Shown piece by piece: positions 1,515-19,458 of a stretch of DNA of 64,000 nt. Position numbers and translations under genes: made by a program. The notes under the pieces are model-generated. The model had not been told where the DNA came from, made no database searches, and saw only the letters and a list, made by a program, of their open reading frames with translations. The stretch's first letter is position 1. Every line of letters begins with the position of its first letter. This stretch comes from a virus, in IMG/VR virus record IMGVR_UViG_3300042566_000478, positions 1 to 64,000 of that record; one strand, written 5' to 3'.

Positions 1515-1552
1515 ACCTCCTCTGGTCGTTTGGGTTACTTGAACATTACAGA
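1515..1552 (-). promoter_or_regulatory. early promoter (-10 TAATGT) with AACCCAAAC leader and AGGAGG RBS
   Basis: minus: TGTAATGTTCAAGTAACCCAAACGACCAGAGGAGGTCACCATG; -35 weak. Confidence 0.55.
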
Positions 1553-1579
1553 CATTTGGGGCGAATGTGGTGCTGGGTA

Positions 1580-3067
1580 TTAGCCCTCCCATCCGTAGGA
1601 CTCCAGAACCAACATGGCAACGGCTTTGCGCTCATCATCCAGCAGGTCATCTGCCTCGCCATCCAGAACGCTGGACAAGATTCGGTTCTTCATCATGATG
1701 ATTTGAATCATGCGCTCATCAATCGTTGAATGCTCCTCAATCGCACTCAACATGATGTGCGAAACGACATCACGCTTCTGTCCGATTCTCTGCAAACGGT
1801 CTTCGCATTGCAGAAGGTCTGCTGATGTCCAAGGCAACGATGCGCTCACATGATGTCGTGCTGATGTGAGTGTGAGTCCAGTTCCCGATGCAATGATGTT
1901 GCCAACCAACACTCGTGCTGTTCCGTTCTGGAATGCATCAACACTTGCCATCTTCGCTGAGTCATTCATGCCCCCAACAACTTGTACTGCATTCACATCT
2001 GCGAATGCATCCATGTAACGCTTCGCCTCCTCTTTGAATGCACAAGTGATGAACACCTGCTCATCGTTGTCCAGAAGTTCACGCACATAAGCAACAACGC
2101 CATTCACCTTGCCAAGTGCTGACAACTTGCGAAGTTCATTGATGCGAATCAATGCTTCTGCTCGCTCAACATTGTTCGCCTTCTCCTGACCTTTGGTGAT
2201 GCGAATCCACTCGTAGAGATTTGCTTCGGCGTAGCGATACAACTTCTCGTACTTCTCCTCCATCTCCATCGCAACTTCCATACGACCCTTGTTCGGCAAT
2301 TCCAGAACATCGGAACGCTTCATGCGAAGCATGAATGAGCCCACGAGAACATCGTGCAATTCGTTCAAGCGTTGCGCTCCACGAGTGCCATAGTTGTCAA
2401 TGCGTGGTGCATAGCGAGCCATGTATCCACGAATGCCACCTTCAAATGCACCTTGTTGCTCCAGACCATTGATGACCGACAACAATTCCATTGGGCGATT
2501 GATGAGTGGCGTTCCCGACATCATCACTCGGATTCCAGACAATGGAATTGATTGCGAAATATCAATCACGGCTTGCGAACGCTTTGCTCGCTTGCCACCC
2601 TTGATGCGCTGGCATTCATCCACGATGATTCCCTTCACATGACCCTTCAACAGATTCTTGTAACCATCTGCCGATGTGTCACCCATGATGAGTACATCAA
2701 CATCTGGCAATGACTTGATTCCCTGCTTCACAGGGTTAGTACCCGTGATGGTATGCACACTCAACTGCGGAGCGAAGCGTGAGAACTCACGCTTGAATTG
2801 CAATCGCATTGTCGGTGGGCAAACAATCAATACTGGGCGCATTCCTGCTTGAACACTTGATTGCGAAATCGCAACAGCAGTTGGTGACTTGCCTGTTCCC
2901 ATCTCCATCGCAAGCAACACTCGCTGACGCTCCAATGCAAACTTGGTTGCTTCAACTTGATGTGGCATCAATGGCAATGCAGTTTCTTGAACAGCGAAGT
3001 TCAACTTGCTTGGTGCATCATTCAAAATTGACATGAAGCCTTGAAGTGCATCTGACTGGGTTTTCAT
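1580..3067 (-). CDS. SNF2-family (HARP/SMARCAL1-like) helicase
   Basis: LMPHQ, EMGTGKS Walker A, DECQ Walker B, SGTPLINRP, GTGLTL, QCEDRLQRIGQ; start moved to ATG 3067 behind AGGAGG. Confidence 0.9.
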   Translation of the reverse strand: MKTQSDALQGFMSILNDAPSKLNFAVQETALPLMPHQVEATKFALERQRVLLAMEMGTGKSPTAVAISQSSVQAGMRPVLIVCPPTMRLQFKREFSRFAPQLSVHTITGTNPVKQGIKSLPDVDVLIMGDTSADGYKNLLKGHVKGIIVDECQRIKGGKRAKRSQAVIDISQSIPLSGIRVMMSGTPLINRPMELLSVINGLEQQGAFEGGIRGYMARYAPRIDNYGTRGAQRLNELHDVLVGSFMLRMKRSDVLELPNKGRMEVAMEMEEKYEKLYRYAEANLYEWIRITKGQEKANNVERAEALIRINELRKLSALGKVNGVVAYVRELLDNDEQVFITCAFKEEAKRYMDAFADVNAVQVVGGMNDSAKMASVDAFQNGTARVLVGNIIASGTGLTLTSARHHVSASLPWTSADLLQCEDRLQRIGQKRDVVSHIMLSAIEEHSTIDERMIQIIMMKNRILSSVLDGEADDLLDDERKAVAMLVLESYGWEG

Positions 3068-3162
3068 ATTTCCTCCTGTGGAATTGGTTGGGTTCAGCGT
3101 AGCCAGTTTGGAATGGATTCGGCAGGACATTACAGACTTTTTTTTAGAGCCCCAGAATGCCA

Positions 3163-3200
3163 GAAGCCCCGACTCCACAGGGGTTCTGGAGTCAGGGCTC
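3163..3200 (-). terminator. intrinsic terminator-like hairpin
   Basis: minus GCCCTGACTCCA-gaacccctg-TGGAGTCGGGGC-TTCT. Confidence 0.65.
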
Positions 3201-3221
3201 TGGGCTCGGCTTTGCTTCGGG

Positions 3222-3791
3222 CTACTGGTATCGCACCTCATCCCACATGGCTACCTGCATGATGCGATTCCCAGCCTCTGGTGAGAAGAAAAAGTGATTG
3301 GTCTGCATTCCCAGCCTCCATTGGCGAAGTACTGAGTCATCGGTGAGTGACAGCATCTTCACAGCACCAACGATGTCACGGCGTGACAATTCAGCCATAG
3401 TGCAGGTCGTACCAACTGTGTGACCTGACATTGGTTCACCTACCCAAAGTCTCACGAAATCTTCCCAGAACGAAACTGGATGCGAATCTTCTGCGTACTT
3501 GAACACATCTGTGAACGACACATAAGTGAACAGTTCTTGATTGTGGAAATGAGGAACATTAGTAGGCAGAGTGTTGAAGCGTGATGACAACACAGCCTTC
3601 ACGAGTGGGTCACAGAATCGCTGTGGTTCTCCTGCGAAGTCATTCATCGCTTCAATGACTCCACACTCAGAGCAAATCTCGGTCATGTTGTCTACTCGTG
3701 AGATTGCACCTGCATACATTCCTGCGTGTTCACGATTCGGAATTGGTGAATCGCATCGTGGGCAATCTTTGATTTCATTTTGAATTGACAT
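3222..3791 (-). CDS. hypothetical protein with N-terminal Zn finger
   Basis: CPRC...GAISRVDN..EICSECG; start moved to MSIQNE. Confidence 0.7.
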   Translation of the reverse strand: MSIQNEIKDCPRCDSPIPNREHAGMYAGAISRVDNMTEICSECGVIEAMNDFAGEPQRFCDPLVKAVLSSRFNTLPTNVPHFHNQELFTYVSFTDVFKYAEDSHPVSFWEDFVRLWVGEPMSGHTVGTTCTMAELSRRDIVGAVKMLSLTDDSVLRQWRLGMQTNHFFFSPEAGNRIMQVAMWDEVRYQ

Positions 3792-3792
3792 T

Positions 3793-4071
3793 TCAGAATG
3801 TCTCCTTCGTGATTGTGATTGTGTTTTCAAATGATTCTGTTTCAACAGAGATGTTGGTGATGTCTGCAAAGAACTCACCAATCGCTTGTGCTTGCTTTGC
3901 CATTGCAATGAAATGTTCTTCAACCCATTTGAAGTTGTCAGAAGTGTTCATTGTCTTTGCATCTTCACGGTACTTCTCCGATGCGTAACCAAGAATGCGA
4001 ACAAGTGTGTACGCATCAATTACGCAAGCATCTTTTTTGGTATCTGGGATTTCTACTTTTGCAAGTCTCAT
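3793..4071 (-). CDS. hypothetical protein
   Basis: start MRLAKV behind ACCCAAAC leader and AAGGAG RBS. Confidence 0.7.
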   Translation of the reverse strand: MRLAKVEIPDTKKDACVIDAYTLVRILGYASEKYREDAKTMNTSDNFKWVEEHFIAMAKQAQAIGEFFADITNISVETESFENTITITKETF

Positions 4072-4191
4072 GACTGCTCCTTTGTGTTTGGGTACTGACA
4101 TCATATGTCGGGGGTGTACCAATGTCCAACATCTAAGTTCCAGAGCCTTAGAACGCTTCCTATGAGGCGGTTTCTGGGGACATAATAGAAA

Positions 4192-4223
4192 AGAGCCCCA
4201 GACCACTTGGGTCTGAGGCTCTT
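4192..4223 (-). terminator. intrinsic terminator
   Basis: minus AAGAGCCTCAGACC-caagt-GGTCTGGGGCTCTT-TTTC. Confidence 0.8.
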
Positions 4224-4270
4224 CACCTGTGAGGCGGATTCCGACACTTAGCGGAGGCTTCGCATCGGAC

Positions 4271-4579
4271 TCACAAGTATGCGTGTAATGCTTCTGGCAA
4301 GTTGCGCCTGTACTCACCAGACTCAGCAACGAATCCATTTGGGCGAGCAATGACTGTCCACACTACGAATGGTGTGAAGTTGTTGTGTGGAAGAAAGCAC
4401 AACGCTTTCCACGATGCGTATGTTTCACCAACAACACGCTCTCCTCGCTTTTCGCATTCCAGAACAATTCCACCAGTTGTACCAACAAGGTCACCTCGTT
4501 GTAATTGGTCGTTGCTCCTGTCTTTCGGAGTGGTGTCCAAGATTGAATCAACAATCTCTTTGAATACTTGTTCTTGCAT
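4271..4579 (-). CDS. hypothetical protein
   Basis: start MQEQVF behind GAAGGAG RBS. Confidence 0.7.
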   Translation of the reverse strand: MQEQVFKEIVDSILDTTPKDRSNDQLQRGDLVGTTGGIVLECEKRGERVVGETYASWKALCFLPHNNFTPFVVWTVIARPNGFVAESGEYRRNLPEALHAYL

Positions 4580-4609
4580 TTCTGCTCCTTCGTTTGGTTT
4601 GGGATAGTC

Positions 4610-4638
4610 AGGGTATCTGCTCGTAGGACACATTTCAA
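4610..4638 (-). promoter_or_regulatory. sigma70-type promoter
   Basis: TTGAAA-17 nt-TACCCT. Confidence 0.6.
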
Positions 4639-4731
4639 ACATCATTCCCAGAGCAAATAAATCACTAGCAATGTGTAGAAGATGCACCAGCCAACTGTGG
4701 CGTAATTGAACATATTCGGGCTTTCAATCGT

Positions 4732-4788
4732 GAAGGGCTCAGAGAGTCGCAATGTTGGGGGAACATTACAGACTTTTCTGAGCCCTTC
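4732..4788 (-). terminator. long hairpin after the DUF932 gene, containing an octamer copy
   Basis: GAAGGGCTCAGA...TCTGAGCCCTTC inverted repeat with an inner GTAATGTT/AACATTGC stem. Confidence 0.65.
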
Positions 4789-4801
4789 TGGGTTGTTAGG
4801 A

Positions 4802-5866
4802 CTAAGCAGTCACCAATTCAAGTTTGGCGAGAACCATCTTGTCGTACTCTGCTTGCTGGTTTGAAACCAAGCGAGTGTAGTTACGGTTGTAACGGTTCTT
4901 GTCAGAGCCTGACAAGTGCTGATGGAATGTTGTTGTTGCTTGGATTACTCCGAGTGCTGTGTTCTTCCAAGGCAACACTCGTGGGTCTGTGCGCCACAAG
5001 CCATTCAACAAGTCACGCTTCGGATTCTGCTTGCCAGCAGAGCGAGTGTCTTGTGTGTTGGATGGAACAATGAGTGTCTTTCCAGACTCATCCTTCATGG
5101 TGAGTTCAACCATGTTGATTGGGAACAAGTCTTTCACCAGAGCATCAAACTGATTGTCAGTTACTGACCATGCTGACAACTTCTCCAACTCTTCCATCAT
5201 GTCGCTTCCTGCGCTGTAGACAATTTCAAGAGCCTCACGCAAGTTGCCGAGGTCATTCAACTGTGCTGAACGATTGTGGCGAATCTTCACCTTGTGGTCT
5301 GCATTCTCATTGAGTGCCAACTGCAAAGTGTTGTCGCAAACAACTGCTTGGAGACAACGCAAGTATTGAGTCTGTCGCATTCCGTCATGCGATGTTGTCG
5401 CAATGAGTGTTGGGCGAAACTCAAATCCAGAAGTGCTGGAGAGATTCTCTGGTACTGAGATTTGTACCCATGCACGACTGCCCTTCTGGAGCAATCCTGC
5501 TGAGTCAATTCCGAGTTCGTTGCTGTCAAGAATCGCTTCCAAGTTCTTCAACAACACATCTTCGTATTGGTGAATCTGGTAGCGATTAGAAACAACACCA
5601 AAAACTTCTCCGTTGTTGCTGTGGGTAATCGCTTGCTTGCCATCAATCACTTTGAATGAGCCATCGCTGTTCTTTGCGTACACAGGCTTTGATACTGCTT
5701 CAAAGTTGAAGAGTCGGCGTTTGACATCTTCTACTGGAACGAATCCCTCGTAGTGATTGGACTCTTCACCTTGCTCTTCGGCTCGCCAATGCCAAGCCAT
5801 TCCACGCTTCAGCGTGTTTCCAATCAGGGTCATGCGGTTCAACCAACCGCTTGTTTCTGCTGACAT
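4802..5866 (-). CDS. DUF932 / TIGR03299 phage-plasmid-like protein
   Basis: GMAWH, GVVSNRYQIHQ, SAGLLQKGSRAW, TTSHDG, AVVCDNTL, KIRH motifs. Confidence 0.85.
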   Translation of the reverse strand: MSAETSGWLNRMTLIGNTLKRGMAWHWRAEEQGEESNHYEGFVPVEDVKRRLFNFEAVSKPVYAKNSDGSFKVIDGKQAITHSNNGEVFGVVSNRYQIHQYEDVLLKNLEAILDSNELGIDSAGLLQKGSRAWVQISVPENLSSTSGFEFRPTLIATTSHDGMRQTQYLRCLQAVVCDNTLQLALNENADHKVKIRHNRSAQLNDLGNLREALEIVYSAGSDMMEELEKLSAWSVTDNQFDALVKDLFPINMVELTMKDESGKTLIVPSNTQDTRSAGKQNPKRDLLNGLWRTDPRVLPWKNTALGVIQATTTFHQHLSGSDKNRYNRNYTRLVSNQQAEYDKMVLAKLELVTA

Positions 5867-5916
5867 GATATTGCTTCTTTCTCCGCACTCTGGCGGTGTT
5901 TGGGTTTAGGACATTG

Positions 5917-5945
5917 ATTCAATCAGATGTTTTGTCTTTTTGCAA
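5917..5945 (-). promoter_or_regulatory. promoter with atypical -10
   Basis: TTGCAA-17 nt-TTGAAT; shares ATCTGATTGAAT with 7596-7607. Confidence 0.5.
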
Positions 5946-5976
5946 CATCTTCTTATTTTCTTTTTATTGCAAGGGA

Positions 5977-6870
5977 TTATCGCCATCCCTTGCCGAGGTC
6001 ACGGGCGTTCTTCCAGATACTGGATGACTCTGGTGTCTCTGATTTGGTTGCGTGAAGTTGTCGCATCACCTGCTGGCGAATCATCGTGTTCATCGCTTGG
6101 GCAAGTGCTTGTGTGAACTCTGTTTCTGACAACAAGGACATGACAATGTTTTTGAAATCAAAGTTCTTGATTTCATCTTGAACCATCTCTTTGAAATCCA
6201 TCTCATCAATTTCACTTTGTACTGCATCGCTGAAGTCGTGCTCATCAATCACATCATTGACGATTGCTGTTACTTCGTACTTCAATCTTCTGTCATCGTC
6301 TAACTCTTCAATCTTTTCTTCCAAGTCTGCGAAACGAGACTTAGTTGCGTTCTCAATTACTGCATTGAGGTCGTAGTCTTCCAATGCTTCTTCAATGACT
6401 TCATGTGCATTGATTGTCCATGCACTAAGTTTCTCAACTTCTGCTTCAAGTGCATCAATTCTGTTGCAAAGATTGTTGAGCCACTCTGGTGCTTCTGGAA
6501 CAATCTCTTCATCTCGTGATTCTGAGTTAGACACATCTTTGAATTGAAATGGATTCAAGTTGTCAAGTTCAATGTGAGTTTTGTAAATCTTTTCTGGATT
6601 CACTTTGGTGTAGTACTGCAAGTACGAAGACATTACAGAAACTCGCATTCCATTTGGCAGTCTCAACATCTCCCAACCTTCAACAGAATCGCCTGCATCA
6701 GCAAGTGTGTACGCACCATCAATCCACTCTGCTGGAAGAAGTGTTTTTGTTCCTGATGTCTGTGCTGGGATGAGTAAGTCGCTGTCACCAGTCCAATGAA
6801 CAACTCGTACATAGAGTCGCTCATTCTCTGGAAGGTCATCTGCGATGTTCCAATCGTTTTGATTATTCAT
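5977..6870 (-). CDS. hypothetical acidic coiled-coil protein
   Basis: long ORF; start MNNQND behind GAAAGAAGGAAAG. Confidence 0.75.
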   Translation of the reverse strand: MNNQNDWNIADDLPENERLYVRVVHWTGDSDLLIPAQTSGTKTLLPAEWIDGAYTLADAGDSVEGWEMLRLPNGMRVSVMSSYLQYYTKVNPEKIYKTHIELDNLNPFQFKDVSNSESRDEEIVPEAPEWLNNLCNRIDALEAEVEKLSAWTINAHEVIEEALEDYDLNAVIENATKSRFADLEEKIEELDDDRRLKYEVTAIVNDVIDEHDFSDAVQSEIDEMDFKEMVQDEIKNFDFKNIVMSLLSETEFTQALAQAMNTMIRQQVMRQLHATKSETPESSSIWKNARDLGKGWR

Positions 6871-6872
6871 GT

Positions 6873-7307
6873 TCACTTTCCTTCTTTCGTTGTCCATTGG
6901 GTTTCAATTTCATCTTTGATTGCGGTGGTAAATGTATCCCACATATAATCCGAGTTCAAACATCCAGCGAACCATTCCAAATCTTCTTTTGGCAATGCGG
7001 TGAAATACTTTGCTTTTTCTGTTTCATCTTTACTGAAATAGAACTCTGAGTTTTCTTGCAACTCTTGTTGAATTGCATCTGGACTAAATGCGATGGAGTT
7101 TGAATAATTCAAATCTCCGTAACCGCATCCTTCAAGCATTGGTCGCAATGGTTTGCCCATCTGGTCTGCAAGTTCCAGAACATCACCATCGCCACCTTGA
7201 AAGATTTCTTCTTGGTCTTGCTCTGAGAGTTCATCTGTATCAACGATGACACAATGCTCAACATAGAGAATTGTTCCAGATTGTTCACAAATAATAATCT
7301 TTGACAT
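6873..7307 (-). CDS. hypothetical protein
   Basis: acidic 144-aa ORF, translationally coupled to neighbours. Confidence 0.7.
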   Translation of the reverse strand: MSKIIICEQSGTILYVEHCVIVDTDELSEQDQEEIFQGGDGDVLELADQMGKPLRPMLEGCGYGDLNYSNSIAFSPDAIQQELQENSEFYFSKDETEKAKYFTALPKEDLEWFAGCLNSDYMWDTFTTAIKDEIETQWTTKEGK

Positions 7308-7567
7308 CAGCGCACCACCACATCGTATTCAGTTACATAAAAGTCTTCGTGACTGACTGACATATGTCCGTTCATCAATCCCTTCAACTCTTCAACACCA
7401 CCAGTTGCATAGAAGAAGATTTCTTCATCTGGATGTCCAAACACATCGCCAACTACATCTCCTTTTTCATTAGTGACTTCATCACCAAATGAAATGTAAA
7501 CATAATGGTCTGTTTTTGCTTCATCATCCCAGTATCGGATGGTTGCATTCGCACCTTCTGGTTTCAC
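7307..7567 (-). CDS. hypothetical protein
   Basis: GTG start behind AGAGGAG. Confidence 0.65.
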   Translation of the reverse strand: MKPEGANATIRYWDDEAKTDHYVYISFGDEVTNEKGDVVGDVFGHPDEEIFFYATGGVEELKGLMNGHMSVSHEDFYVTEYDVVVR

Positions 7568-7595
7568 TTTCGCTCCTCTGTTTGTTGGGACTCTC

Positions 7596-7624
7596 ATTCA
7601 ATCAGATTGGAACGGACATTACAA
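7596..7624 (-). promoter_or_regulatory. promoter whose -35 overlaps an octamer copy
   Basis: TTGTAA-17 nt-TTGAAT. Confidence 0.5.
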
Positions 7625-7644
7625 CCTTTTTCCATAGAAATGCG

Positions 7645-7792
7645 AAAGCCCCAGATGCCACTCACAAGGAAGGCATTATCTGGGGCTCAATTCACACCAA
7701 AACCCAAATTGGTGTGGCATTACCTCTGCTATTACTCAGAGGCTCGCTTGGTTACCTGTCTAACGAAAGGAGGAAAGAAAACAGGCAACCAA
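7645..7792 (-). ncRNA. putative four-hairpin small RNA / structured 3' UTR with anti-RBS loops (element A)
   Basis: stems at 7748-7792, 7723-7742, 7693-7716 and terminator 7647-7687; G-U pair favours minus strand; loops UCUUUCCUCCUUUCGUU and UUUGGGUU. Confidence 0.65.
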
Positions 7793-7796
7793 TCCT

Positions 7797-8012
7797 TTAC
7801 CAAAGTGCTTTCACATACTTGTGTGTCTCTTCTGCAACAGCATCTTTGTGAAATGGGTCGTGCATTGATGAGCGAAGTGTTTCGGCAACATCAGAACGCA
7901 CATTGGACAAAACATTGAAGTACGCCTGACCGTACCTCCACGATGGTTTGAACTGGTGGTAGTACTTCTCAACACGCTCCATGAACTCTTCGTATGAAAG
8001 TTTCTCTTTCAT
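7797..8012 (-). CDS. hypothetical protein (WRYGQAYFN...DPF type)
   Basis: motif recurrent in small phage proteins. Confidence 0.75.
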   Translation of the reverse strand: MKEKLSYEEFMERVEKYYHQFKPSWRYGQAYFNVLSNVRSDVAETLRSSMHDPFHKDAVAEETHKYVKALW

Positions 8013-8449
8013 TGCGCTCCCATCAAGTACGCAACAGCGAACTGAACTGCATCAAACAAATCGTGCGTTACATACAAACCTTCTGCACCAGAACTGTCAT
8101 TTGCATCAATCACTTCAAACCAAGGATTGCTCACATAAACAAATCGCTTTCGTTCTGTTACAAACTCATCAAGCAATTCATCAGTAGTGATTCCCCATTG
8201 CTCCAAATCGGTTGCATTGTAAATCGCTCCGTAATTGTCATGACCTTTGGACACGATGTCAATCTTCAATGTTCCTTGAACGCATACTGCAAGTTGCATG
8301 GTTGGGCTTTGTGCAAACACAACTGTCTTGTTTGCATTCCCGACATACCATTCAGCACCAGCACGAGACAAGTTTGGTGGAACATTCCAGATGACTTGTG
8401 GGACATTACGAACATTCCCACCTGTGACAATGATGTTTCCTGTGCTCAT
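8009..8449 (-). CDS. hypothetical protein
   Basis: ORF track; coupled start/stop. Confidence 0.7.
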   Translation of the reverse strand: MSTGNIIVTGGNVRNVPQVIWNVPPNLSRAGAEWYVGNANKTVVFAQSPTMQLAVCVQGTLKIDIVSKGHDNYGAIYNATDLEQWGITTDELLDEFVTERKRFVYVSNPWFEVIDANDSSGAEGLYVTHDLFDAVQFAVAYLMGAQ

Positions 8450-8757
8450 TCTTCTTCTCCTTTTGCTACATCAAGACAAAGCAATGCGACACTTCCATCA
8501 GTATCCATTTCTTGAATCGTTTGTCCATTCCATTCAACATTGCGATATGGGTACGCAGTTGCTCGCATGAATGGTTCTCCATACACCGAGATGTTGATGT
8601 CCCATTCTCCACCGCCAAGTGCTTCTGGAATGGTGACACCTTGCCACTCATCAAAGTCATCGTAAAACACCTTCTGTTCACGAATCGCTTTCTCTGCCAA
8701 ATGCAATGCTTCTTCTGTTAGGTAATTCACTAACTCTTCGCTTTTTGTCATGAACAT
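8446..8757 (-). CDS. hypothetical protein
   Basis: ORF track; GGAGG RBS. Confidence 0.7.
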   Translation of the reverse strand: MFMTKSEELVNYLTEEALHLAEKAIREQKVFYDDFDEWQGVTIPEALGGGEWDINISVYGEPFMRATAYPYRNVEWNGQTIQEMDTDGSVALLCLDVAKGEEE

Positions 8758-8981
8758 ACTTCCTCCAAGTATTCCAAATCAATGTTGAATAAAATGACCG
8801 TGTGACCTTCTGGAGCGTAAAACTTTACATACGCTCCGTCTAAATCTTCTTCCATGTCTTCATTTACATTACAGACATATTTGAGTTTCGCAACATCCTC
8901 GTCACCATAAAACTGGTTGGTGTTGAGTGCTGGAATCAACAAATCTTGTGCAACTAAATCGGGGCGAATAATGTGTGGCAT
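8748..8981 (-). CDS. hypothetical protein
   Basis: start MPHIIR overlaps upstream stop (TAATG). Confidence 0.65.
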   Translation of the reverse strand: MPHIIRPDLVAQDLLIPALNTNQFYGDEDVAKLKYVCNVNEDMEEDLDGAYVKFYAPEGHTVILFNIDLEYLEEVCS

Positions 8982-9487: not shown

Positions 9488-9497
9488 GATGTCTCCT

Positions 9498-10809: not shown

Positions 10810-10982
10810 TACAGAGTTTCTCCTTCTTCAACTGCTTCTACACTCTGAAACTCACGAGTTTCAAAAAGAAACACACCTTTGTCTGATGCGTGTTCTTGTG
10901 CTGTGAATGAACTGTCTGCTTCAATCTCATACACATCAGTTTCAATGTATGTGTAATACACACGGTACTTCTGGAGTTTCAT
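10809..10982 (-). CDS. small hypothetical protein (57 aa)
   Basis: read manually: MKLQKYRVYYTYIETDVYEIEADS...; TAATG coupling. Confidence 0.65.
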   Translation of the reverse strand: MKLQKYRVYYTYIETDVYEIEADSSFTAQEHASDKGVFLFETREFQSVEAVEEGETL

Positions 10983-12027: not shown

Positions 12028-12356
12028 ACTGCTTCCTCCATTTCCCAGAAGCCAAAGCAAGCACCATCGGAATCTAATGTTCCAAAGGTGCATCCTTCTG
12101 GTGCGATTGCATCCATCACATTGAAGAGATGGTCTACGAGAAACATTTCTTGTTCCTCGTCACGGACTGCTTTGGGGTCAATCATTGCGAACAGGACATC
12201 GTTCCAATCGTCAAGGATTGCTTCTTTGATTTTTGGGTCGTGTTCCCCGATGACTGCAAGGAAGGCTTTTGCCAAATCCTCGGTACGGAGTGTTCCTTCA
12301 GAAACGATGGAGTTTACCCACACATCTCCCAAAGGCTTGATGTTTTCGTAAGACAT
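12024..12356 (-). CDS. hypothetical protein
   Basis: SEGTLRTEDL...APEGCTFG..DSDGACFGFW motif seen in phage proteins. Confidence 0.8.
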   Translation of the reverse strand: MSYENIKPLGDVWVNSIVSEGTLRTEDLAKAFLAVIGEHDPKIKEAILDDWNDVLFAMIDPKAVRDEEQEMFLVDHLFNVMDAIAPEGCTFGTLDSDGACFGFWEMEEAV

Positions 12357-12380: not shown

Positions 12381-12409
12381 ACATTACAGGTTCAGAACGG
12401 AAGTGGCAA
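12381..12409 (-). promoter_or_regulatory. sigma70-type promoter overlapping an octamer copy
   Basis: TTGCCA-17 nt-TAATGT. Confidence 0.7.
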
Positions 12410-12411
12410 CT

Positions 12412-12567
12412 CTATTCTGAGTCTTTTTTGCCGTGTTGAATCATGGGCAAATACTTTTCAGGAAGGGTACTTCCACCGCATTGGTGCATCGGTGGGTAAT
12501 TAGTTTTCACATACAAAATTACTTTGTGGTCACACCAAGGACAAAGATATGTCGTACCTTTATTCAC
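12412..12567 (-). CDS. small Zn-ribbon-like protein (51 aa)
   Basis: read manually: MNKGTTYLCPWCDHKVILYVKTNYPPMHQC...; GTG overlaps upstream TAG. Confidence 0.5.
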   Translation of the reverse strand: MNKGTTYLCPWCDHKVILYVKTNYPPMHQCGGSTLPEKYLPMIQHGKKDSE

Positions 12568-13100
12568 TATAAACTCCAATGCCTCAATCCACCGTTATCA
12601 AGTAAATACTTGCTCACTTTTAGGTTACAGTCAAGTGTTCTCAAAAGTTTGATTCCACCACCACAAATGTTCTTTGTTACGGTCTGCCATGAAGAATTGA
12701 CCTGTAGCAAGCCACTATCGTATGAGCCGTTCTTGTTCAATGTCCAAATGATTTTGCCATTGGCATTCCACTTAGCATTTACTGCATCTGGGTTGCATCC
12801 GCTTTCACGCCATGCAATGTACGAAAACACCTGCACAGGGAGCAAACCGTAGTCACGGAATGCCTGCTCAAATTGAGGGCATCGCCTGGTTTTATCTGAA
12901 GGGATGCGCTTATCTTCAGGTTCTGGAATTGTTGTAGTTGTAGTTGGCACAATCAAGTAAGGCTCAACTGAAATTGGGTGCTTTGGGTAAACAGATTCTG
13001 GTGTATTTGCTGTGCTTGGGGACATTACAGAAAAGATGGAGGCGAGAACAAGATTCCCTGTCAGCGCAACCGTTTTGAGTATTTCCGACAATCTAAGCAT
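12567..13100 (-). CDS. secreted lytic transglycosylase (SLT/lysozyme-like)
   Basis: signal peptide, poly-Thr linker, IAWRESGC catalytic Glu, DSGLLQVN, CNL...W. Confidence 0.8.
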   Translation of the reverse strand: MLRLSEILKTVALTGNLVLASIFSVMSPSTANTPESVYPKHPISVEPYLIVPTTTTTIPEPEDKRIPSDKTRRCPQFEQAFRDYGLLPVQVFSYIAWRESGCNPDAVNAKWNANGKIIWTLNKNGSYDSGLLQVNSSWQTVTKNICGGGIKLLRTLDCNLKVSKYLLDNGGLRHWSL

Positions 13101-13123
13101 TCATTATCCTTTGTTCGGGTAAT

Positions 13124-13208
13124 AAAAAAGCCCCATCCATTGAAGTATGGGGCGCAAGGCTCGGTATGGGGAGCACTACAAGTTTACACCAAATTAGCCT
13201 TCTAGCAA
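13124..13208 (-). promoter_or_regulatory. promoter plus short structured leader ending in a terminator
   Basis: TTGCTA-16 nt-TAAACT; hairpins 13159-13174 and 13130-13153 with T6 tail. Confidence 0.55.
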
Positions 13209-13607
13209 CCTCTGGAGCAGTATTTTTAGGTCAGGAAGTTCTTCTCCTATAAGGGGAATAATATCTACATCTATTTCATTGCGTAATGGGCGTGTTGTGT
13301 GAGCCCAATCACAATCATCACAAGCACAGCCTTGACGAAAGCGTACAACTGTTCCATGTTCAGCAAGATTGTTTGTTGTGTCCTTCTGTAGCGGTACACG
13401 CTCTTGTGGTGTTAGTCCACCCCACACTCCATATGTTTCTTTTCTTCCTATTGAGAGACACTCATCCCAAACAGGGCAGACATTACAAACTTGTTTTGCA
13501 ATGAGATAATTTATTTCTGGAGTTTGTGCGTCAAATGGTGGAAAGAAAATATCTCCATGCATTTTTCTGCACAGAGCATCCGACATCCATTCGGGAGTTT
13601 CTATCAC
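13194..13607 (-). CDS. whiB: WhiB-family transcription factor with C-terminal Cys/His extension
   Basis: WMSDALC, FFPP, CNVCPVWDEC, YGVWGG; extension HGT...GCACDDC. Confidence 0.9.
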   Translation of the reverse strand: MIETPEWMSDALCRKMHGDIFFPPFDAQTPEINYLIAKQVCNVCPVWDECLSIGRKETYGVWGGLTPQERVPLQKDTTNNLAEHGTVVRFRQGCACDDCDWAHTTRPLRNEIDVDIIPLIGEELPDLKILLQRLLEG

Positions 13608-13930
13608 TAGTGTTTCTCTCGGTACAAAACAAGAGCAATGATTGCGTATGACGCTAGGTCAATAAGAGAATCTTCAATTCCTTCGTTGCGAAGTTTGCTA
13701 CCTTTCGCTGCGGATTGCAGACGAATCACTTTGTCGTTTGCACGAATGAGTGTTCCAACCCAAGCAGGTACTCCCCAGTCAGTTGATGCACGAACATTTG
13801 CAAGAGGGTCTTCACCTGTTCCGTAATCACTACCTTTTTTTTCATGCATCTCTCCCAACTCTTGGAGTATGCGATAAAACTCTGGGTGTCCTGTTCTGTC
13901 CACGATTATTCTGCTCCGTTTTCTGTCCAC
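13607..13930 (-). CDS. DUF1599 / nucleotide-modification-associated domain protein
   Basis: KKGSDYG...DPLANV...DKVIRL...EGIEDSLIDLASYAII. Confidence 0.8.
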   Translation of the reverse strand: MDRKRSRIIVDRTGHPEFYRILQELGEMHEKKGSDYGTGEDPLANVRASTDWGVPAWVGTLIRANDKVIRLQSAAKGSKLRNEGIEDSLIDLASYAIIALVLYREKH

Positions 13931-14328
13931 TCTTCAAGACTGTCCATACCGTAAAAAATTGGCATTTCCAACCTTTCTGCTTCTTTTATTTCTTCAATCG
14001 CTTCGTAGGCTTCAAACACCAGAACAGCGTCACAACGCTTCATTACTTGAAAGCAATACTCATTCCAAAACTCTGTACTGTTGGGGTACTTTTGATTCCA
14101 GAAACCACAGGTAAGCACAGGAATTACTGGTAGACATATTCCAGAGGTGTACAACTCTTCTGCTAGGTCAATAGCATCTTGGTAATTGTCATCTATATTG
14201 TCACGGTGATATGGCCCAACAACATACACATGAGGAAGAAGAATGTGAGCCAAGGTTCTCATAAACTCTTTGTTTACTCCTTCTACCATGATGTCTTCGG
14301 AGTAGTTTCTTAGAACGAAATCCCCCAT
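13906..14328 (-). CDS. DUF1937/DUF4406-like (nucleoside deoxyribosyltransferase fold) protein
   Basis: VYVVGPY, PVIP, CDAVLV, EIKEAERLEMPIFY. Confidence 0.65.
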   Translation of the reverse strand: MGDFVLRNYSEDIMVEGVNKEFMRTLAHILLPHVYVVGPYHRDNIDDNYQDAIDLAEELYTSGICLPVIPVLTCGFWNQKYPNSTEFWNEYCFQVMKRCDAVLVFEAYEAIEEIKEAERLEMPIFYGMDSLEEWTENGAE

Positions 14329-14405
14329 TACGAATGCCTGTTCATATTAGAACGAATAGCCATGTAGTAGCAAGCAAGTGCGAGAACAATGAATACCTTT
14401 GTCAT
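14328..14405 (-). CDS. 25-aa hydrophobic peptide
   Basis: MTKVFIVLALACYYMAIRSNMNRHS; fills the gap with coupled start and stop. Confidence 0.35.
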   Translation of the reverse strand: MTKVFIVLALACYYMAIRSNMNRHS

Positions 14406-14626
14406 CACTTTTCCTGCAACCACTTCAGACCATTACGAAGATATACGGTGGCATAACAGAACGCCATGAATATAAATCCGTATTGTTTGGTTTGGATGGC
14501 AAAAATAATCCAAAGCAATTCATTGACTGAAAGAAAAAAGAATGCGTGGGCGTGTTTTTTGCCAACATACCACATCCCTGTAACGCCGAAGATGGCAAGC
14601 ACCCACGACCATATTTGTTCACTCAT
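14405..14626 (-). CDS. small membrane protein, PnuC-like three-helix unit
   Basis: WSWVLAIFGVTG...LWIIFAIQTKQYG...YLRNGLKW. Confidence 0.65.
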   Translation of the reverse strand: MSEQIWSWVLAIFGVTGMWYVGKKHAHAFFFLSVNELLWIIFAIQTKQYGFIFMAFCYATVYLRNGLKWLQEK

Positions 14627-14669
14627 TTTGTACTCCTAATATCCGTATTAGGAGTACATTAGTACAGAT

Positions 14670-14909
14670 TTACTTGTCTGTACTCCAAGCGTGAACTGAT
14701 TGAATCAGAACACCCAAAACATCGTCAGGGTTTTCATCCTCATTGACCAAAGACTGGCAATAGGTGGAAGCGGACTTAGCAACACTTTCTGCTTTTTCCA
14801 ACTTCTTAGCCATTGATTCAATCATCTGGCGAAGGGCTTGCTTGTCATCGTATGCACGAGCAAGTGATACCTGTAGGTCTTGAATTACTGCAAACTCAAA
14901 TGACTCCAT
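14670..14909 (-). CDS. hypothetical coiled-coil protein
   Basis: ORF track; GAGAGG RBS. Confidence 0.65.
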   Translation of the reverse strand: MESFEFAVIQDLQVSLARAYDDKQALRQMIESMAKKLEKAESVAKSASTYCQSLVNEDENPDDVLGVLIQSVHAWSTDK

Positions 14910-14961
14910 AAAACCTCTCTTTTTAGGTTATACACAAGCGTACAACCTATGAATGGTCTTG

Positions 14962-16398
14962 TCAAGCCTCATCCGATAGGTCAATGACATCCTGATACAT
15001 ACGGTCAGTCTGCTGGGCATTCAACCCACCTCCAGACAGTTGCCTCGTAGATTCCCCGACTGCTTGACCAAATATACGACTAAGCACCCCACTGCTTCCT
15101 CTGGCTTCTACCTCTAAGCGCATGACATCACGAGTATCCGATATGTCTTTGAACTTCTCTACCAAGTTGAACAGGCGTTCTACCTCATTGGACAACGCTG
15201 GGTCAAGACCTTGACCTTCTAGTTCTTCGGCAAAGCGAGCGAACAATACACGGCTCACTTGCATCTCCAGAAGAGCCCTCATCGCAGCCTGTAACTGGTC
15301 TTTAGTTTTGATTTCTACAGGCAACTTGAATCCACATTCTGAGTTCTCCTTGAATGCAGGACATCTGGCACTCAAATAGCAACTATTACATTGTCTGAAA
15401 AGACTACTTTGGTACTGAATTACAGGTACTTTTTCAATACCTATTTCTTCAGATTCTCCTTCTCCTGCAAGGGTTTGCGCTAATGGAGGAGTGTACTGCT
15501 CAATACCCATTACTGGTAGCAATACTTTGTCACCCTCGTGCCTCTTCTCAGACCCCCTAATAGTAATACTTGTACCCCCTGAAACCACATTTGGTGAAGT
15601 AGGCAAATTACTCAAATAGTTACTATTATCTTCATTTTCCGATAGACCTATTTCTTCTTCATCGTTGTCTTCTGATGGGTCATAGACCCCAAAAGCACCC
15701 TGCTCCCATGCTTGCCAAGACTTGATTGCCAACTTCGCAACTTCAGCGTTATCGTCTTGAACTATCTGTTCATAGTCAATTCCTAAACGAATAATGTCTG
15801 CTCGGTGTTTCTTTCGGGCAGAATCTTTTTGCTGTGCTGGGTAACGGCGTAAACCGTGACCATCCCATACTTGTGTTTCCCCGTAGCGAACTGCCGATGT
15901 CCATGAACCAACAAGAACAGAATCCCAAGGAAGGGATTCAATAATCTCTGGCTTTGACGACAAACCAATGAGTTTGGCATCCCACCTCTGAATGAGGTTT
16001 CGTATTCTGGAGATAGTTTTACCGTTTACAGCCTTGTCACTAATCGCAGCCCGACCATATCGCTGGCACAGGTAGGCAAGCCTTTCCATGTCATCTGGGT
16101 CATTCCATACTGGGATGTACCTCTCATTTAGCCATGCACCGTCATAATCAGGTCTTCCTATGATTGCAGTTAGGCTTTCGTAATGCTGGCGAATGAAATC
16201 GTCATAGCGAGTAACATCTTCATCATTCTCGGAAGTGTAAAGAATTACCTCGTTCCCACCGAACATTACAGATAAATCAAGTTCTTTTTTCTTGGGAACA
16301 GCCAAATGAGTCAGATTTATAGCAAAGCGAGTTACACCAGCATTCTGGAGAAGCGACCTGTGGGATGACTTTTCGGCATTAGCAAAGTAAATCTTCAT
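14962..16398 (-). CDS. TGT/DpdA-like TIM-barrel protein (degenerate) fused to a Cys-rich C-terminal domain
   Basis: MKIYFA, YIPVW, PWDSVLVGSWTSAVRYG resemble phage TGT-like proteins; CNSCYLSARCPAF..ECGF. Confidence 0.5.
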   Translation of the reverse strand: MKIYFANAEKSSHRSLLQNAGVTRFAINLTHLAVPKKKELDLSVMFGGNEVILYTSENDEDVTRYDDFIRQHYESLTAIIGRPDYDGAWLNERYIPVWNDPDDMERLAYLCQRYGRAAISDKAVNGKTISRIRNLIQRWDAKLIGLSSKPEIIESLPWDSVLVGSWTSAVRYGETQVWDGHGLRRYPAQQKDSARKKHRADIIRLGIDYEQIVQDDNAEVAKLAIKSWQAWEQGAFGVYDPSEDNDEEEIGLSENEDNSNYLSNLPTSPNVVSGGTSITIRGSEKRHEGDKVLLPVMGIEQYTPPLAQTLAGEGESEEIGIEKVPVIQYQSSLFRQCNSCYLSARCPAFKENSECGFKLPVEIKTKDQLQAAMRALLEMQVSRVLFARFAEELEGQGLDPALSNEVERLFNLVEKFKDISDTRDVMRLEVEARGSSGVLSRIFGQAVGESTRQLSGGGLNAQQTDRMYQDVIDLSDEA

Positions 16399-16880
16399 TC
16401 TGGCTCTTTCGTAGTCCTATACAGCGACTGTACTTCAATTTCACGAGTCAGGTCTGTCCACATCTGTTTTTCACGAGGTTTATCCTCACGCCATTCTGGG
16501 CGAACAAAGTTAGGCAACCCAACGAGAAGACATGGGATTGCTTCTTTCATAACGAGGGTTACTGCTTCTGGATTGGTATCTACATACCAGTCAATCTTTC
16601 CATAGGCGGCGTGAAGAGCCTTTACACGGTCACAAAGAGCCTTAGCCCCTGTACCACTTGCGACATCAACATGAGCAAACTTATACCCTTCACGCTTTGC
16701 CCACGATTCCAACATTTCTGCTGAAATACCATTATCGGCAAGAAGAATAACTCTTCCGTGGTATCGGGCAAATAACGCCTCATACAATTTTTGACCATCT
16801 GGAATGGGTTGTCGTGCGCCTGGAACTTGTGCTTTGTCAGTCTGTGCATATGCTACGACATCAAAAGTAACGATAAGCAT
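16395..16880 (-). CDS. HAD-fold-like protein
   Basis: LIVTFDVV N-terminal strand, WYVDTNP. Confidence 0.5.
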   Translation of the reverse strand: MLIVTFDVVAYAQTDKAQVPGARQPIPDGQKLYEALFARYHGRVILLADNGISAEMLESWAKREGYKFAHVDVASGTGAKALCDRVKALHAAYGKIDWYVDTNPEAVTLVMKEAIPCLLVGLPNFVRPEWREDKPREKQMWTDLTREIEVQSLYRTTKEPE

Positions 16881-17338
16881 CAGTCGTACATGCCCAACGC
16901 TTTACGCTCTTGTGTTGCTACATAGCCAGAACCTACTGGGCAGAAATGACAAAGGTACTGCCATTGTTCTTTAGGTACACCGACTTTGCGACCAATTGTT
17001 TTAGATTCGTCTTCCCAGTCAATGCAACTTCCTTTAGGCGCACCATGTCGCTGAAAACACTTAAGTGCCTCTACTTTGAGGTCATCACGAACTTCACGAA
17101 CCTCAATCTCGTTCTTCATCAACTCTTTTTTGATTCCAGTCTCACCATCAAGGGCATCATAGGTGGCTTGGTCACAACGGAAGATTTGAGACATGTGTGC
17201 TTCAGGGGCAGGATTTTGAGCACGAGCAAGGTGCATCTTAATGATTTCCTGCAACTCCATGTCATTGTCAGCGTTACCGTCATAATCACGCATTTTGTGC
17301 ATTGTTCCACAGGAATTGCAAACTAGAAGTCTTGGCAT
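16880..17338 (-). CDS. hypothetical Cys/His-rich protein
   Basis: CNSC, CFQRH, YLCHFCPV. Confidence 0.75.
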   Translation of the reverse strand: MPRLLVCNSCGTMHKMRDYDGNADNDMELQEIIKMHLARAQNPAPEAHMSQIFRCDQATYDALDGETGIKKELMKNEIEVREVRDDLKVEALKCFQRHGAPKGSCIDWEDESKTIGRKVGVPKEQWQYLCHFCPVGSGYVATQERKALGMYD

Positions 17339-17383
17339 GTTGTACTACTTTCTATGAACTTGTTATTTGCTGTAGTCTAGCAG

Positions 17384-17548
17384 TTACTTCTTACCTTTTT
17401 TAGACACAGCCATATTGTCCACAAGGTTTGGGTAGGGGCGACCAGCAGACTTAGCACGAGCCTTTGCCTCTGCTTTTTGGTCAGGAGTCAATTTAGTTGA
17501 TTTCTTTTTAGGGTTTGGTTTATCCCAAACGTCTTTTTTAGAAGCCAT
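17384..17548 (-). CDS. small basic protein (54 aa)
   Basis: read manually: MASKKDVWDKPNPKKKSTKLTPDQKAEAKARAKSAGRPYPNLVDNMAV... Confidence 0.75.
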   Translation of the reverse strand: MASKKDVWDKPNPKKKSTKLTPDQKAEAKARAKSAGRPYPNLVDNMAVSKKGKK

Positions 17549-17715
17549 TATTTCTTCTTCTTTTCTTTAGATTGACCTGCTTCGGACAAAGCGATTGCTA
17601 TTGCTTGTTTCTTATCTACAACAGTTGGGCCGTTCTTAGAGCCTGAACGGAGTTCACCGTGAGCGTACTCTCTCATTACTTTTGCTACTTTTTTAGCACC
17701 TTTTTTATCAGCCAT
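17548..17715 (-). CDS. DUF6496-like small basic protein (55 aa)
   Basis: read manually: KKVAKVMREYAHGELRSGSKNGPTVVDKKQAIAIALSEAG. Confidence 0.8.
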   Translation of the reverse strand: MADKKGAKKVAKVMREYAHGELRSGSKNGPTVVDKKQAIAIALSEAGQSKEKKKK

Positions 17716-18053
17716 TATTCCTCTGGTTTATCCATTGCGTCTTTTAGTGAAGAATGAAAATCTGTATCATTGGCTAGTTTCCAACGAACTTCATCATAGT
17801 TTACATCTTTCAGGTCAAAGATGTCAATCTGTCTTGGAAGGTGACCAAAAGAAACAGCAAGTTCGTGCAGTTTTTGGTCTGGTATTTTCTTCAAGACATC
17901 AAAAACAGGTTTGTTGGCGGTGCGCTTAGTCATCTCATCATTAGCGTCAGCAAACAATCCTTTTTTTGCTACAGATGGATGGAACTGTTGCTGTTCCCCA
18001 CGTTTCGCCATTTTCTTACGGCGAAACTCCGCCATGTCAATGATTTCGCCCAC
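17715..18053 (-). CDS. hypothetical protein
   Basis: ORF track; coupled to downstream gene. Confidence 0.65.
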   Translation of the reverse strand: MGEIIDMAEFRRKKMAKRGEQQQFHPSVAKKGLFADANDEMTKRTANKPVFDVLKKIPDQKLHELAVSFGHLPRQIDIFDLKDVNYDEVRWKLANDTDFHSSLKDAMDKPEE

Positions 18054-18063
18054 ATTACAACCT

Positions 18064-18264
18064 TTAGAGGCTAATTACTGGTTCAGTTGCCTCAGCCATT
18101 GGGCTCTTTGGGGTAATGCCGTACTGAGGTGGAGCAACAAGACTGCGCTTGATTGATGTACTTTCGTCTACCTCACCACCACGACTTGGGGTCAGCGACT
18201 TGTATGTACCATCCATGATTCCCAAGCGGAGGTCTTGGTTCTGTGAGCGTGAAGTATTTTGCAT
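18064..18264 (-). CDS. hypothetical protein
   Basis: SRSQNQDLRLGIMDGTYK; AAGGA RBS. Confidence 0.65.
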   Translation of the reverse strand: MQNTSRSQNQDLRLGIMDGTYKSLTPSRGGEVDESTSIKRSLVAPPQYGITPKSPMAEATEPVISL

Positions 18265-18303
18265 ATCAATCCTTATCGGTTGTGGGCAGATGCACCCATT
18301 TTA

Positions 18304-19131
18304 TCATCTACGGTTTTGTGCATTTCCTGCTGTAGAAATAACCATACCTTCAATGTTTCCAGCGTTCATAAAACCAGGTGCTGGAGAACCGTCACCACCG
18401 CCACCAAAAGTGTTGTCATTACCTTGGAATGCATTGGCTGAAGAAGCATCATTGATAACTGAACCAGTTTTTGAAGGCTTTGCAGGAGGTTTAGCAGCAG
18501 GCTTTGGCTTTACAGGTTTAGGAGTTCTGTTTGGGTTACGAGTTCCATAGGCAGGGTTTTCAGCCTTTTTCTGCGCTCGTTTTTCTGCTGTTGCCTTCTT
18601 TTGTTCATCGGTGCGTGGGGCTCTTGGGGCTCGTGAAGGTTGGGCAGGTTCAGCAGAACCACCCATAACACTGTCACCATAATTTTTAGCGGTGGTTTGT
18701 GGAGCAAAAACAGTACCCTGTGCGTTTTGTGGTGGTTGCCAGTTATCGGTAACTCGTGGTTTACTGACCGCAGAGTCACCATAATACTTACCTGTGTCTT
18801 GTGGAGCAAAAGTAGTATTTACAGGAGGGAGAGCGCCAACAATCTTGGTAATGTCATCGGCGTTAAAACCACCGCCACCGCCACCACCGCCTGAACCACC
18901 ACCGCCAGTATTGCGGTCACCATATCTGCGGTTCATTTGGCTGATGCTTTCAAAGGCATCTGGGAATGGGCTTTGTGCTTGTTTTGGTCTTCTCATAGCA
19001 GACCAGTCACGCTGAGTACCAGCGTTGGCAGGGCTAAAAGGTGCTACCTGTGGGGCTTCGCCTCGGTTGATACGCCCTGTAGCGTTATACAAAGGAGTTG
19101 TATTTACTTCACCAAAGCGGTTTGTAGGCAT
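18304..19131 (-). CDS. Gly/Pro/Lys-rich disordered protein with GSVINDASSANAFQGN motif
   Basis: low-complexity ORF; C-terminus paralogous to 20489-22108. Confidence 0.7.
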   Translation of the reverse strand: MPTNRFGEVNTTPLYNATGRINRGEAPQVAPFSPANAGTQRDWSAMRRPKQAQSPFPDAFESISQMNRRYGDRNTGGGGSGGGGGGGGFNADDITKIVGALPPVNTTFAPQDTGKYYGDSAVSKPRVTDNWQPPQNAQGTVFAPQTTAKNYGDSVMGGSAEPAQPSRAPRAPRTDEQKKATAEKRAQKKAENPAYGTRNPNRTPKPVKPKPAAKPPAKPSKTGSVINDASSANAFQGNDNTFGGGGDGSPAPGFMNAGNIEGMVISTAGNAQNRR

Positions 19132-19137
19132 GTTCTA

Positions 19138-19458
19138 TTATACCCACAGACTTTGCATTGAGTATCTACCACTACCACCGTAGGTATCGTCATTCATTTG
19201 TGCTCGGCGGAACATTACAGGAGCACCAGAAACCCATGAACGGTATGTTGGGGCGTAACGGTCTACAGATAGAACATCCATAACACCAAGTTCTTGTTTT
19301 AAGAACCCACGACTCTCTGGCATTAACTGCTGAGGAACAACAGGGCGAGTAGCACGGATAGTTTCTGGGTCAGAAATAGCATTCTGCAATGCAATATCCA
19401 CCAGCATCTCTTCACGAGATTGCCAAGGTCTGCGAGTGCGCTGGTTATCTACAGGCAT
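19138..19458 (-). CDS. hypothetical protein
   Basis: ORF track. Confidence 0.7.
   Translation of the reverse strand: MPVDNQRTRRPWQSREEMLVDIALQNAISDPETIRATRPVVPQQLMPESRGFLKQELGVMDVLSVDRYAPTYRSWVSGAPVMFRRAQMNDDTYGGSGRYSMQSLWV

Follow-up and report, generated by a model that had tools for sequence, protein, structure and literature searches.

Results

The octamer and its two-armed arrangement

The DNA analysed here, positions 1 to 64,000 of IMG/VR virus record IMGVR_UViG_3300042566_000478 (the window), is the opening 64 kb of one 91,769-bp contig (43.7% GC) that belongs to the phage under study (G0). Its structural genes (sheath, baseplate J, portal, capsid and terminase) make it a myovirus, and 121 of its 138 called open reading frames (ORFs), all the long ones included, lie on the minus strand from one end of the contig to the other. 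Along this gene array runs a repeated octamer, TGTAATGT, of which a preliminary description of the window had listed 15 copies reading ACATTACA on the plus strand (TGTAATGT on the minus). All 15 are present at the coordinates given (Table 1), their spacing does shrink from about 1.6 to about 0.5 kb toward 13.5 kb, and the estimate of about one copy by chance is sound, composition and low-order Markov models giving 0.4–0.9 copies in that orientation over 1–20.8 kb (the left arm) and 2–4 copies per orientation over the remainder (the right arm). The statement that no copy runs the opposite way is correct for 1–20.8 kb but overlooked 10 reversed copies further along the window, between 22457 and 59000; past the window there are four more (64989, 71917, 82058 and 91525). 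The whole contig holds 29 copies of TGTAATGT, 15 on the minus strand (1543–19212) and 14 on the plus strand (22457–91525) with no exception, and the true pattern is two-armed, not a one-way array.

Orientation flips between 19.2 and 22.5 kb, the word being sense to the genes in 1–19 kb and antisense to them in 22–92 kb; as nearly all genes are on the minus strand, polarity is independent of the coding strand. In a blind two-breakpoint polarisation scan of all 6- to 10-mers, TGTAATGT came out as the top word both in G0 and in its relative G3, a complete circular assembly of 98 kb. Variants with one mismatch are only weakly polarised (56 versus 38), and hence the exact core matters. The arrangement is genuine; selection acts on it at the level of DNA, and it is tied to chromosome position and specific to certain phage lineages.

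Selection on the word and its flanks

Copies within genes fall in different reading frames (S/P-V-M and C-N-V, with CNVC in both WhiB genes), from which DNA-level selection had been proposed; the use of several frames, a codon-aware excess and site conservation all bear this out. Against a null model built from the actual protein sequences and genome-wide codon usage the left-arm excess persists, with nine sense intragenic copies where 1.67 are expected (P = 6e-5), and the right arm holds 13 antisense intragenic copies for 3.63 expected (P = 1e-4); intragenic copies of discordant orientation number 0, with 1.2 expected. Coding opportunity, with the observed places set aside, favours the antisense orientation in both arms (1.5:1 in the left, 2.8:1 in the right), and because it leans this way the 9:0 sense count of the left arm is strongly contrary to expectation. 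The 13:0 count of the right arm has by itself P of about 0.02, and its orientation bias becomes convincing once the independent antisense sites of relatives are added. In the comparison of G0 with G3 (86% identity), 21 of the 27 alignable sites are exact, compared with 11.2 expected from neighbouring 8-mers (P = 6e-5), and this conservation is seen in both arms.

In G0 the copies are flanked by a pyrimidine on both sides and by A-rich DNA upstream. Common to both arms are A at −6 and −5, T at −3, a pyrimidine (Y) at −1 and C at +8, positions that in the antisense set run contrary to the local T-rich background. Since this flank is shared, the recognised element is about 15 bp long (AA-n-T-n-Y-TGTAATGT-C) and the same in both arms.

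Promoter-like layout of sense copies

The preliminary description placed copies on promoters, and many sense copies are indeed found upstream of a Shine–Dalgarno sequence (SD) and start codon, in G0 those at 1543, 3127, 7616, 8866, 11843, 12381 and 19212. A distance of 28–100 nt is kept by six of seven copies in G277, all four in G75 and seven of 15 in G0, over a background of 0.19–0.26; for G277 and G75 the range is 28–99 nt and the background 0.19–0.24. Its proposal that copies form the −10 hexamer is plausible for 12381 and 1543 (Table 1). The clearest cases are sites 6764, 5116 and 4308 of G277, each composed of TTGCAA or TTGTCA, a 17-nt spacer, TAATGT, about 20 nt, AGGAGG and ATG. TAATGT matches the actinobacterial −10 form TANNNT, and a −35 element is optional in promoters of Actinobacteria. 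A TTGACA-like −35 hexamer accompanies 12 of 46 sense copies, most clearly these three and 12381 of G0. Scanning 1–20 kb with the sigma-70 consensus gave fewer matches than shuffled sequence, and the idea of a mini-ORF starting at the ATG of the motif was dropped, as its frames and lengths vary among copies.

The minus strand has two strong intrinsic terminators, each with a 15-bp stem (640–675 and 4190–4224), the first closing the entire minus-strand gene array. Terminator-like hairpins number 30 in window positions 38000–58000 (15.9 in shuffles), 20 of them on the plus (antisense) strand; a few of the hairpins are located 90–220 nt downstream of antisense copies (45916, 49848 and 38692). Lake metatranscriptome contigs match 6594–6744, 12387–14842 and 17501–19328 at 90–99% identity; they are unstranded and could reflect DNA carry-over.

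Related phages

Protein searches of viral contigs returned 401 relatives of the terminase, a large family. The word is frequent and follows the two-arm rule in the metagenomic phages G1, G3, G71, G73, G75, G277, G278 and G280, so that with G0 at least nine phages obey it, heavy site turnover notwithstanding, and in each motif-bearing relative the reversal falls in the same gene neighbourhood. Many sites of G71, G73, G75 and G277 are not orthologous to those of G0 and still conform. The rule is broken by a single copy within the terminase gene of G73, by another close to the end of G280 and by a few copies in the junction region, which is rearranged. Just 0–5 copies each occur in G4–G8, G72, G74 and G276.

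A tree of nine core proteins resolves two motif-bearing subclades, each sister to a motif-free genome (support 99–100). The subclades have almost no right-arm sites in common, and hence sites were either gained in parallel or turned over completely after one gain and two losses. Presence of the motif follows the GC content of the phage (41–44% in motif-bearing genomes, 45–53% in motif-free ones) and not the core-gene tree. The copy at 55022 occurs in two motif-free relatives as well and is therefore probably an older occurrence fixed by the protein. Motif-free relatives yielded no other polarised word beyond Gly-rich coding repeats (GGTGGT type) and a weak ATGTTGT pattern. An intergenic 8-mer common to G4–G8, CCTCCTCA, was rejected as the reverse complement of a cassette of ribosome-binding site plus start codon in a gene block of opposite orientation; in that block (e.g. 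42–50 kb of G6) the start cassette, CCTGAGGAGG-N6-9-ATG, is near-identical from gene to gene.

A DNA search found no close relatives among cultured phages, the nearest being Streptomyces phages of the BRock/LuckySocke group (terminase identity 46–47%); LuckySocke has no polarised word. A literature search for the word returned just primers and unrelated text.

Candidate hosts

The sequencing runs that hold G0 DNA are lake-water metagenomes, and a host search with a WhiB protein returned only Streptomyces and one lake actinobacterial metagenome-assembled genome. This is consistent with acI-type hosts (streamlined freshwater Actinobacteria), as host candidates. The lake genome was made the centre of a sample of 61 genomes from its acI-like order (1.2–2.2 Mb), in which the word occurs 1–37 times per genome without polarity, compared with one copy per 3 kb in the phage. 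Across the phylum (201 genomes, including the unpublished G093, G195 and G249, of which the conclusion is independent) no genome carries more than 22 copies of the 10-mer that includes the flanking pyrimidines. In the genomes searched the word is therefore not a host-wide Chi, FtsK orienting polar sequence (KOPS) or promoter word, being neither enriched nor polarised and, in the 20 occurrences viewed in context, mostly intragenic. Host-like genomes carry an AdnAB-like helicase-nuclease gene pair and no RecC. Two of them, G039 and G043 (L154–L173), have 16–18 copies of the word per 1.2 Mb at ~40% GC, where a rough base-composition estimate gives ~70; judged by base composition, the word may be avoided in candidate hosts.

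Candidate reader proteins

Neither binder named in the preliminary description has the right distribution: the helix-turn-helix (HTH) protein of 11294–11728 has no homologue in the motif-bearing G75/G277 subclade, and the MerR-like protein of 31306–31746 occurs in all motif-free relatives too. The HTH_36 protein likewise occurs in motif-free relatives. Phyletic profiling left three small acidic and two basic low-complexity proteins, for which Pfam and PHROGs gave no DNA-binding fold, and found no DNA-binding protein that matches the phyletic pattern of the motif. The protein of 4271–4645 has only 11 relatives, none of them named. Small genes linked to the motif are those at 4271–4687, 10174–10497 and 14670–14909.

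Switch interval, probable origin and probable ends

Between the last sense and the first antisense copy (19220–22456) we found no non-coding gap and no origin-like repeats or iterons, and the genes there have no family match. The interval includes a 539-aa ORF rich in lysine, proline, glycine and asparagine that has no match among cultured phages. Its product and that of 18304–19131, both basic and of low complexity, flank the switch, have homologues solely in motif-bearing genomes and share a C-terminal motif (VIND.SS.NAFQGN.NTFG...NAGNI...IST.GNA). Nearby, a repeat of ~55 nt opens four small genes (19597–19651, 20129–20183, 20437–20491 and 23019–23073), whose products share an N-terminal peptide.

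Six GGGTGTC/GTGACACCC iteron arms at 37430–37534, inside the HTH_36 initiator-like gene and adjoining the DnaC-like and DnaB genes, form a probable replication origin of the lambda-O type. Polarity is not set at this predicted origin, as copies on either side of it share one orientation, and the skew at fourfold-degenerate sites has no step at the switch (20.8 kb). At such sites positions 1–10000 have a GC of 0.34 (0.15–0.26 in other bins) and, unlike the rest, a positive coding-strand AT skew, which may indicate a different origin or expression class.

In LuckySocke the terminal repeat is exact and 344 bp long, all genes share a strand, and 25.3 kb separate the terminase gene from the left end; in G0 that gene is 24.4 kb away from the right contig end. 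The analogy puts the physical ends, probably, at the contig junction, where both arms converge. In G1, G3 and G71 the junction contains 3.5–5 kb missing from G0, a variable block on the opposite strand, and assemblies are prone to break there. The block of G3 (G3 73799–76883; L010 13799–16883) comprises some eight small genes, of which three are paralogous and have a DGHHR motif (ParB-N/sulfiredoxin-like).

Besides numerous small ORFs, the 20-kb arm encodes a DpdA/TGT-like protein, two WhiB proteins, a second SNF2, DUF932 and DUF6011. The DpdA/TGT-like gene (14962–16398; phrog_887) adjoins genes for DUF1599 ('nucleotide modification associated') and DUF7768 proteins, and 13607–17338 is likely a 7-deazaguanine-type DNA modification module, present in motif-free relatives too.

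Table 1. Octamer copies, reversal interval and principal genes of the phage (window coordinates; the terminase gene is outside the window).
Feature	Position	Strand	Context
Sense copy	1543–1550	−	Intergenic; SD and ATG of gene 692–1510 40 nt downstream
Sense copy	3127–3134	−	SD and ATG 67 nt downstream (likely true start of SNF2 gene)
Sense copy	4763–4770	−	Intergenic; in loop of perfect 12-nt inverted repeat (GAAGGGCTCAGA ... TCTGAGCCCTTC, 4745–4810)
Sense copy	6630–6637	−	Within gene 5977–6897, frame S-V-M-S
Sense copy	7616–7623	−	Upstream of gene 7307–7597
Sense copy	8866–8873	−	In gene 8748–8999, frame C-N-V; next SD and ATG 116 nt downstream
Sense copy	9947–9954	−	Within gene 9498–10181
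Sense copy	10806–10813	−	TAA of the copy is stop codon of gene 10809–10982
Sense copy	11843–11850	−	In WhiB gene 11725–12093, C-N-V-C
Sense copy	12381–12388	−	Intergenic; TTGCCA-17-TAATGT, then GAAGGAG, ATG 32 nt downstream
Sense copy	13022–13029	−	In gene 12567–13100
Sense copy	13480–13487	−	In WhiB gene 13194–13607, C-N-V-C
Sense copy	16263–16270	−	Close to 5' end of DpdA/TGT-like gene
Sense copy	18052–18059	−	At start of gene 17715–18053
Last sense copy	19212–19219	−	ATG of gene 18304–19131 88 nt downstream
Orientation-reversal interval	19220–22456	.	Tightly packed minus-strand genes; contains 539-aa low-complexity ORF 20489–22108
First antisense copy	22457–22464	+	Within gene 22099–22599
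Antisense copy	26216–26223	+	In gene 25515–26468
Antisense copy	38692–38699	+	In gene 38560–38832
Antisense copy	41291–41298	+	In baseplate J-like gene
Antisense copy	43023–43030	+	In gene 42885–44048; common to both motif-bearing subclades
Antisense copy	45916–45923	+	In gene 44296–46425
Antisense copy	48315–48322	+	In lysozyme-bearing tail gene, 921 aa
Antisense copy	49848–49855	+	In gene 49329–50123
Antisense copy	55022–55029	+	In gene 54920–55087; also in two motif-free relatives
Antisense copy	59000–59007	+	In portal gene
RecA	26793–27815		Replication/recombination
Family A polymerase	28558–30609		Replication/recombination
SNF2	32149–33693		Replication/recombination
DnaG-type primase	33686–34612		Replication
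DnaB	34578–35843		Replication
DnaC-like loader	36273–36941		Replication
HTH_36 initiator-like	37311–37826		Replication
Baseplate J	40442–42241		Structural
Sheath	50810–52357		Structural
Capsid	56068–57147		Structural
Portal	58013–59704		Structural
Terminase	65771–67336		Outside window

Discussion

The explanation that we favour, tentatively, is that the copies form one promoter-core class, sense in the 20-kb arm and directed outward, antisense, across the replication, structural and fibre genes. TGTAATGT would be the −10 region (TG + TAATGT) of this class. In the terminal arm (1–19 kb) the element would be oriented with the genes and serve as their promoter core, some copies having a −35, and in the other 70 kb the reversed, intragenic element would fire outward without a −35, antisense to the genes. 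While the class is active, the 20-kb arm would be expressed and the other arm would lie under antisense transcription; shutting the class off would reverse both effects. The reader would be RNA polymerase, alone or with a lineage-specific factor, and initiation at the antisense copies, like the temporal role, is what we infer. A promoter is inherently polar. Inside genes of another temporal class, sense copies would do harm, and antisense copies could repress those genes. We favour this reading because the sense copies are laid out like promoters and the flank is of a double-strand type, both of which indicate the transcription machinery or a protein acting on it and point away from a single-strand signal such as Chi.

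Several observations weigh against it. Transcript starts at the copies are predicted ones, the RNA matches being unstranded contigs, and the 20-kb arm is only a putative early region. An invariant 8-mer is unusual, as housekeeping-sigma promoters tolerate changes at the three middle positions of the hexamer, and the TG abuts the hexamer directly where the usual extended −10 has a one-base gap. The antisense copies would have to function without a −35, since a −35-like hexamer accompanies only one of 63, below the 13.5% expected by chance. Scans of the phage protein families found no sigma factor or other specific reader, and 20 host-like occurrences examined in context are mostly intragenic and do not mark a common host promoter.

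Much of the same evidence would suit an operator, at which a sequence-specific DNA-binding protein blocks the −10 at promoters of one arm and acts as an orientation-dependent roadblock in the other, a scheme akin to stoperators but of another geometry. An invariant core with a shared flank of ~15 bp resembles a protein-binding site, sense copies overlap −10 regions, orientation is selected among gene-internal copies, and antisense copies avoid a −35, as expected were promoter activity unwanted there. We nevertheless regard an operator as rather unlikely, for no binder has the right phyletic pattern (the proteins of 11294–11728, the MerR-like and the HTH_36 all fail), the proteins limited to motif-bearing genomes are small and acidic or of low complexity, no integrase or lysogeny genes are found among the proteins scanned, and orientation relative to transcription is opposite between the arms, unlike in the stoperators of mycobacteriophage L5. 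L5 had been offered as the established analogue, and the likeness is real in that its operators and stoperators are an asymmetric, multi-copy site located on promoters and in or between genes, whose orientation matters, as borne out here. In L5, a temperate phage, the sites are bound by a known repressor and all have the same orientation relative to transcription, which is their defining feature. That feature fails here, where transcription is one-way genome-wide and the motif reverses at ~20 kb, with no lysogeny genes among the proteins scanned; as the one-orientation rule does not hold, the element falls outside the L5 stoperator family.

Equally doubtful, in our judgement, is a polar signal of chromosome architecture that belongs to the phage lineage, is neither promoter nor operator and serves a DNA-tracking machine outside host recombination and replication. 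Such a machine would be oriented from a fixed internal point toward both ends, which would make the word a viral equivalent of Chi or KOPS that has a reader to itself. Somewhat less probable again is a Chi-like or roadblock signal read from the DNA ends: with copies directed outward to either end of a linear genome, a host helicase-nuclease of the AdnAB type that enters there would meet them from their 3' side and be tamed or stopped, the dense 20-kb array protecting the more exposed end. Orientation is exactly as needed from both ends, given ends at the contig junction, where the LuckySocke analogy probably puts them; the phage encodes RecA and the candidate hosts an AdnAB-like pair without RecC; and presence of the motif goes with phage GC, which is linked to the host, and not with the core-gene tree. 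Lambdoid phages with 20–32 one-way host Chi sites clustered at one end provide a precedent (PMC12315714), and LLS and MD8 among them, like bacterial Chi and KOPS, resemble our phage in having an exact, strongly oriented 8-mer in 20–30 copies that is denser toward one end and gained within genes by point mutation. Their word is the Chi of the host itself, which is plentiful in the host genome and runs one way in the phage (PMC12315714); ours is rare in candidate hosts, two-armed, placed on promoters and endowed with a double-strand-type flank, placement and flank being unexpected for such a signal. Neither the 61 genomes of the acI-like order nor the 201 of the phylum have the enrichment or polarity that it predicts, the switch is sharp, copies 70 kb from their end are still conserved, and copies are sparse over the final 20 kb at the right end. 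It keeps some weight because its geometry fits the probable ends and the motif follows GC and not phylogeny.

Two further possibilities concern nicking and replication. Nicking of the copies by a phage endonuclease, as at the strand-specific sites of T5 or tf, with the nicked strand changing at the switch, seems very unlikely to us. In its favour are a short, exact site that is specific to one strand, a DNA polymerase closest to those of Streptomyces BRock-group and T5-like phages, and a small PD-(D/E)XK nuclease encoded at 24353–24724; the nuclease is also present in motif-free relatives, however, promoter placement stays unexplained, and the known nicked phages carry nicks on one strand only. 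Lowest of all we rate a replication strand signal, a priming or leading-strand word diverging from an origin at ~20.8 kb. The geometry is that of skewed words around a bacterial origin, a spacing of 1–5 kb is within the range of Okazaki fragments, and a DnaG-type primase, DnaB and a polymerase are encoded by the phage itself. Yet the probable origin is at 37430–37534, where polarity does not change, the switch interval is devoid of non-coding DNA and iterons with a fourfold skew that is flat at 20.8 kb, and motif-free sister phages share the same replisome genes. KOPS and replication-linked octamers switch at the origin, whereas here the iterons and the switch (19.2–22.5 kb) lie apart.

Turning back to the promoter class, the late promoters of T4 (TATAAATA) offer a parallel in being an 8-bp word of the −10 type that needs no −35 and defines one temporal class. 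They follow the strand of the late genes and require gp55, gp33 and the sliding clamp, and factors of this type were not found here. Closest in its working would be a phage promoter class combined with early antisense transcription, for which the virulent myovirus PAK_P3 (~90 kb) is the precedent: of its 20 antisense RNAs, mostly early, 15 are in the structural region, where these units within structural genes are thought to hold late genes off during early expression (PMC4933390). No shared promoter word or two-arm rule was described for PAK_P3, and the antisense units of our phage, in contrast, are deduced from sequence and share their core with the sense promoters of the 20-kb arm.

This phage family is abundant in lake metagenomes, its likely hosts are streamlined freshwater Actinobacteria, and to our knowledge almost nothing is known of how phages of such Actinobacteria are regulated; nor do we know of a prior description of one exact word used in two arms and acquired in parallel by two subclades. 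A single 15-bp word at some 30 places, reversing at one conserved point, gives a handle on how the infection programme is organised, and it distinguishes two groups of sister phages whose hosts probably differ. If the promoter reading is true, a single switch would turn the expressed arm off and free the other from antisense cover; if it is false, the pattern would be a Chi/KOPS-like orientation code private to a virus.

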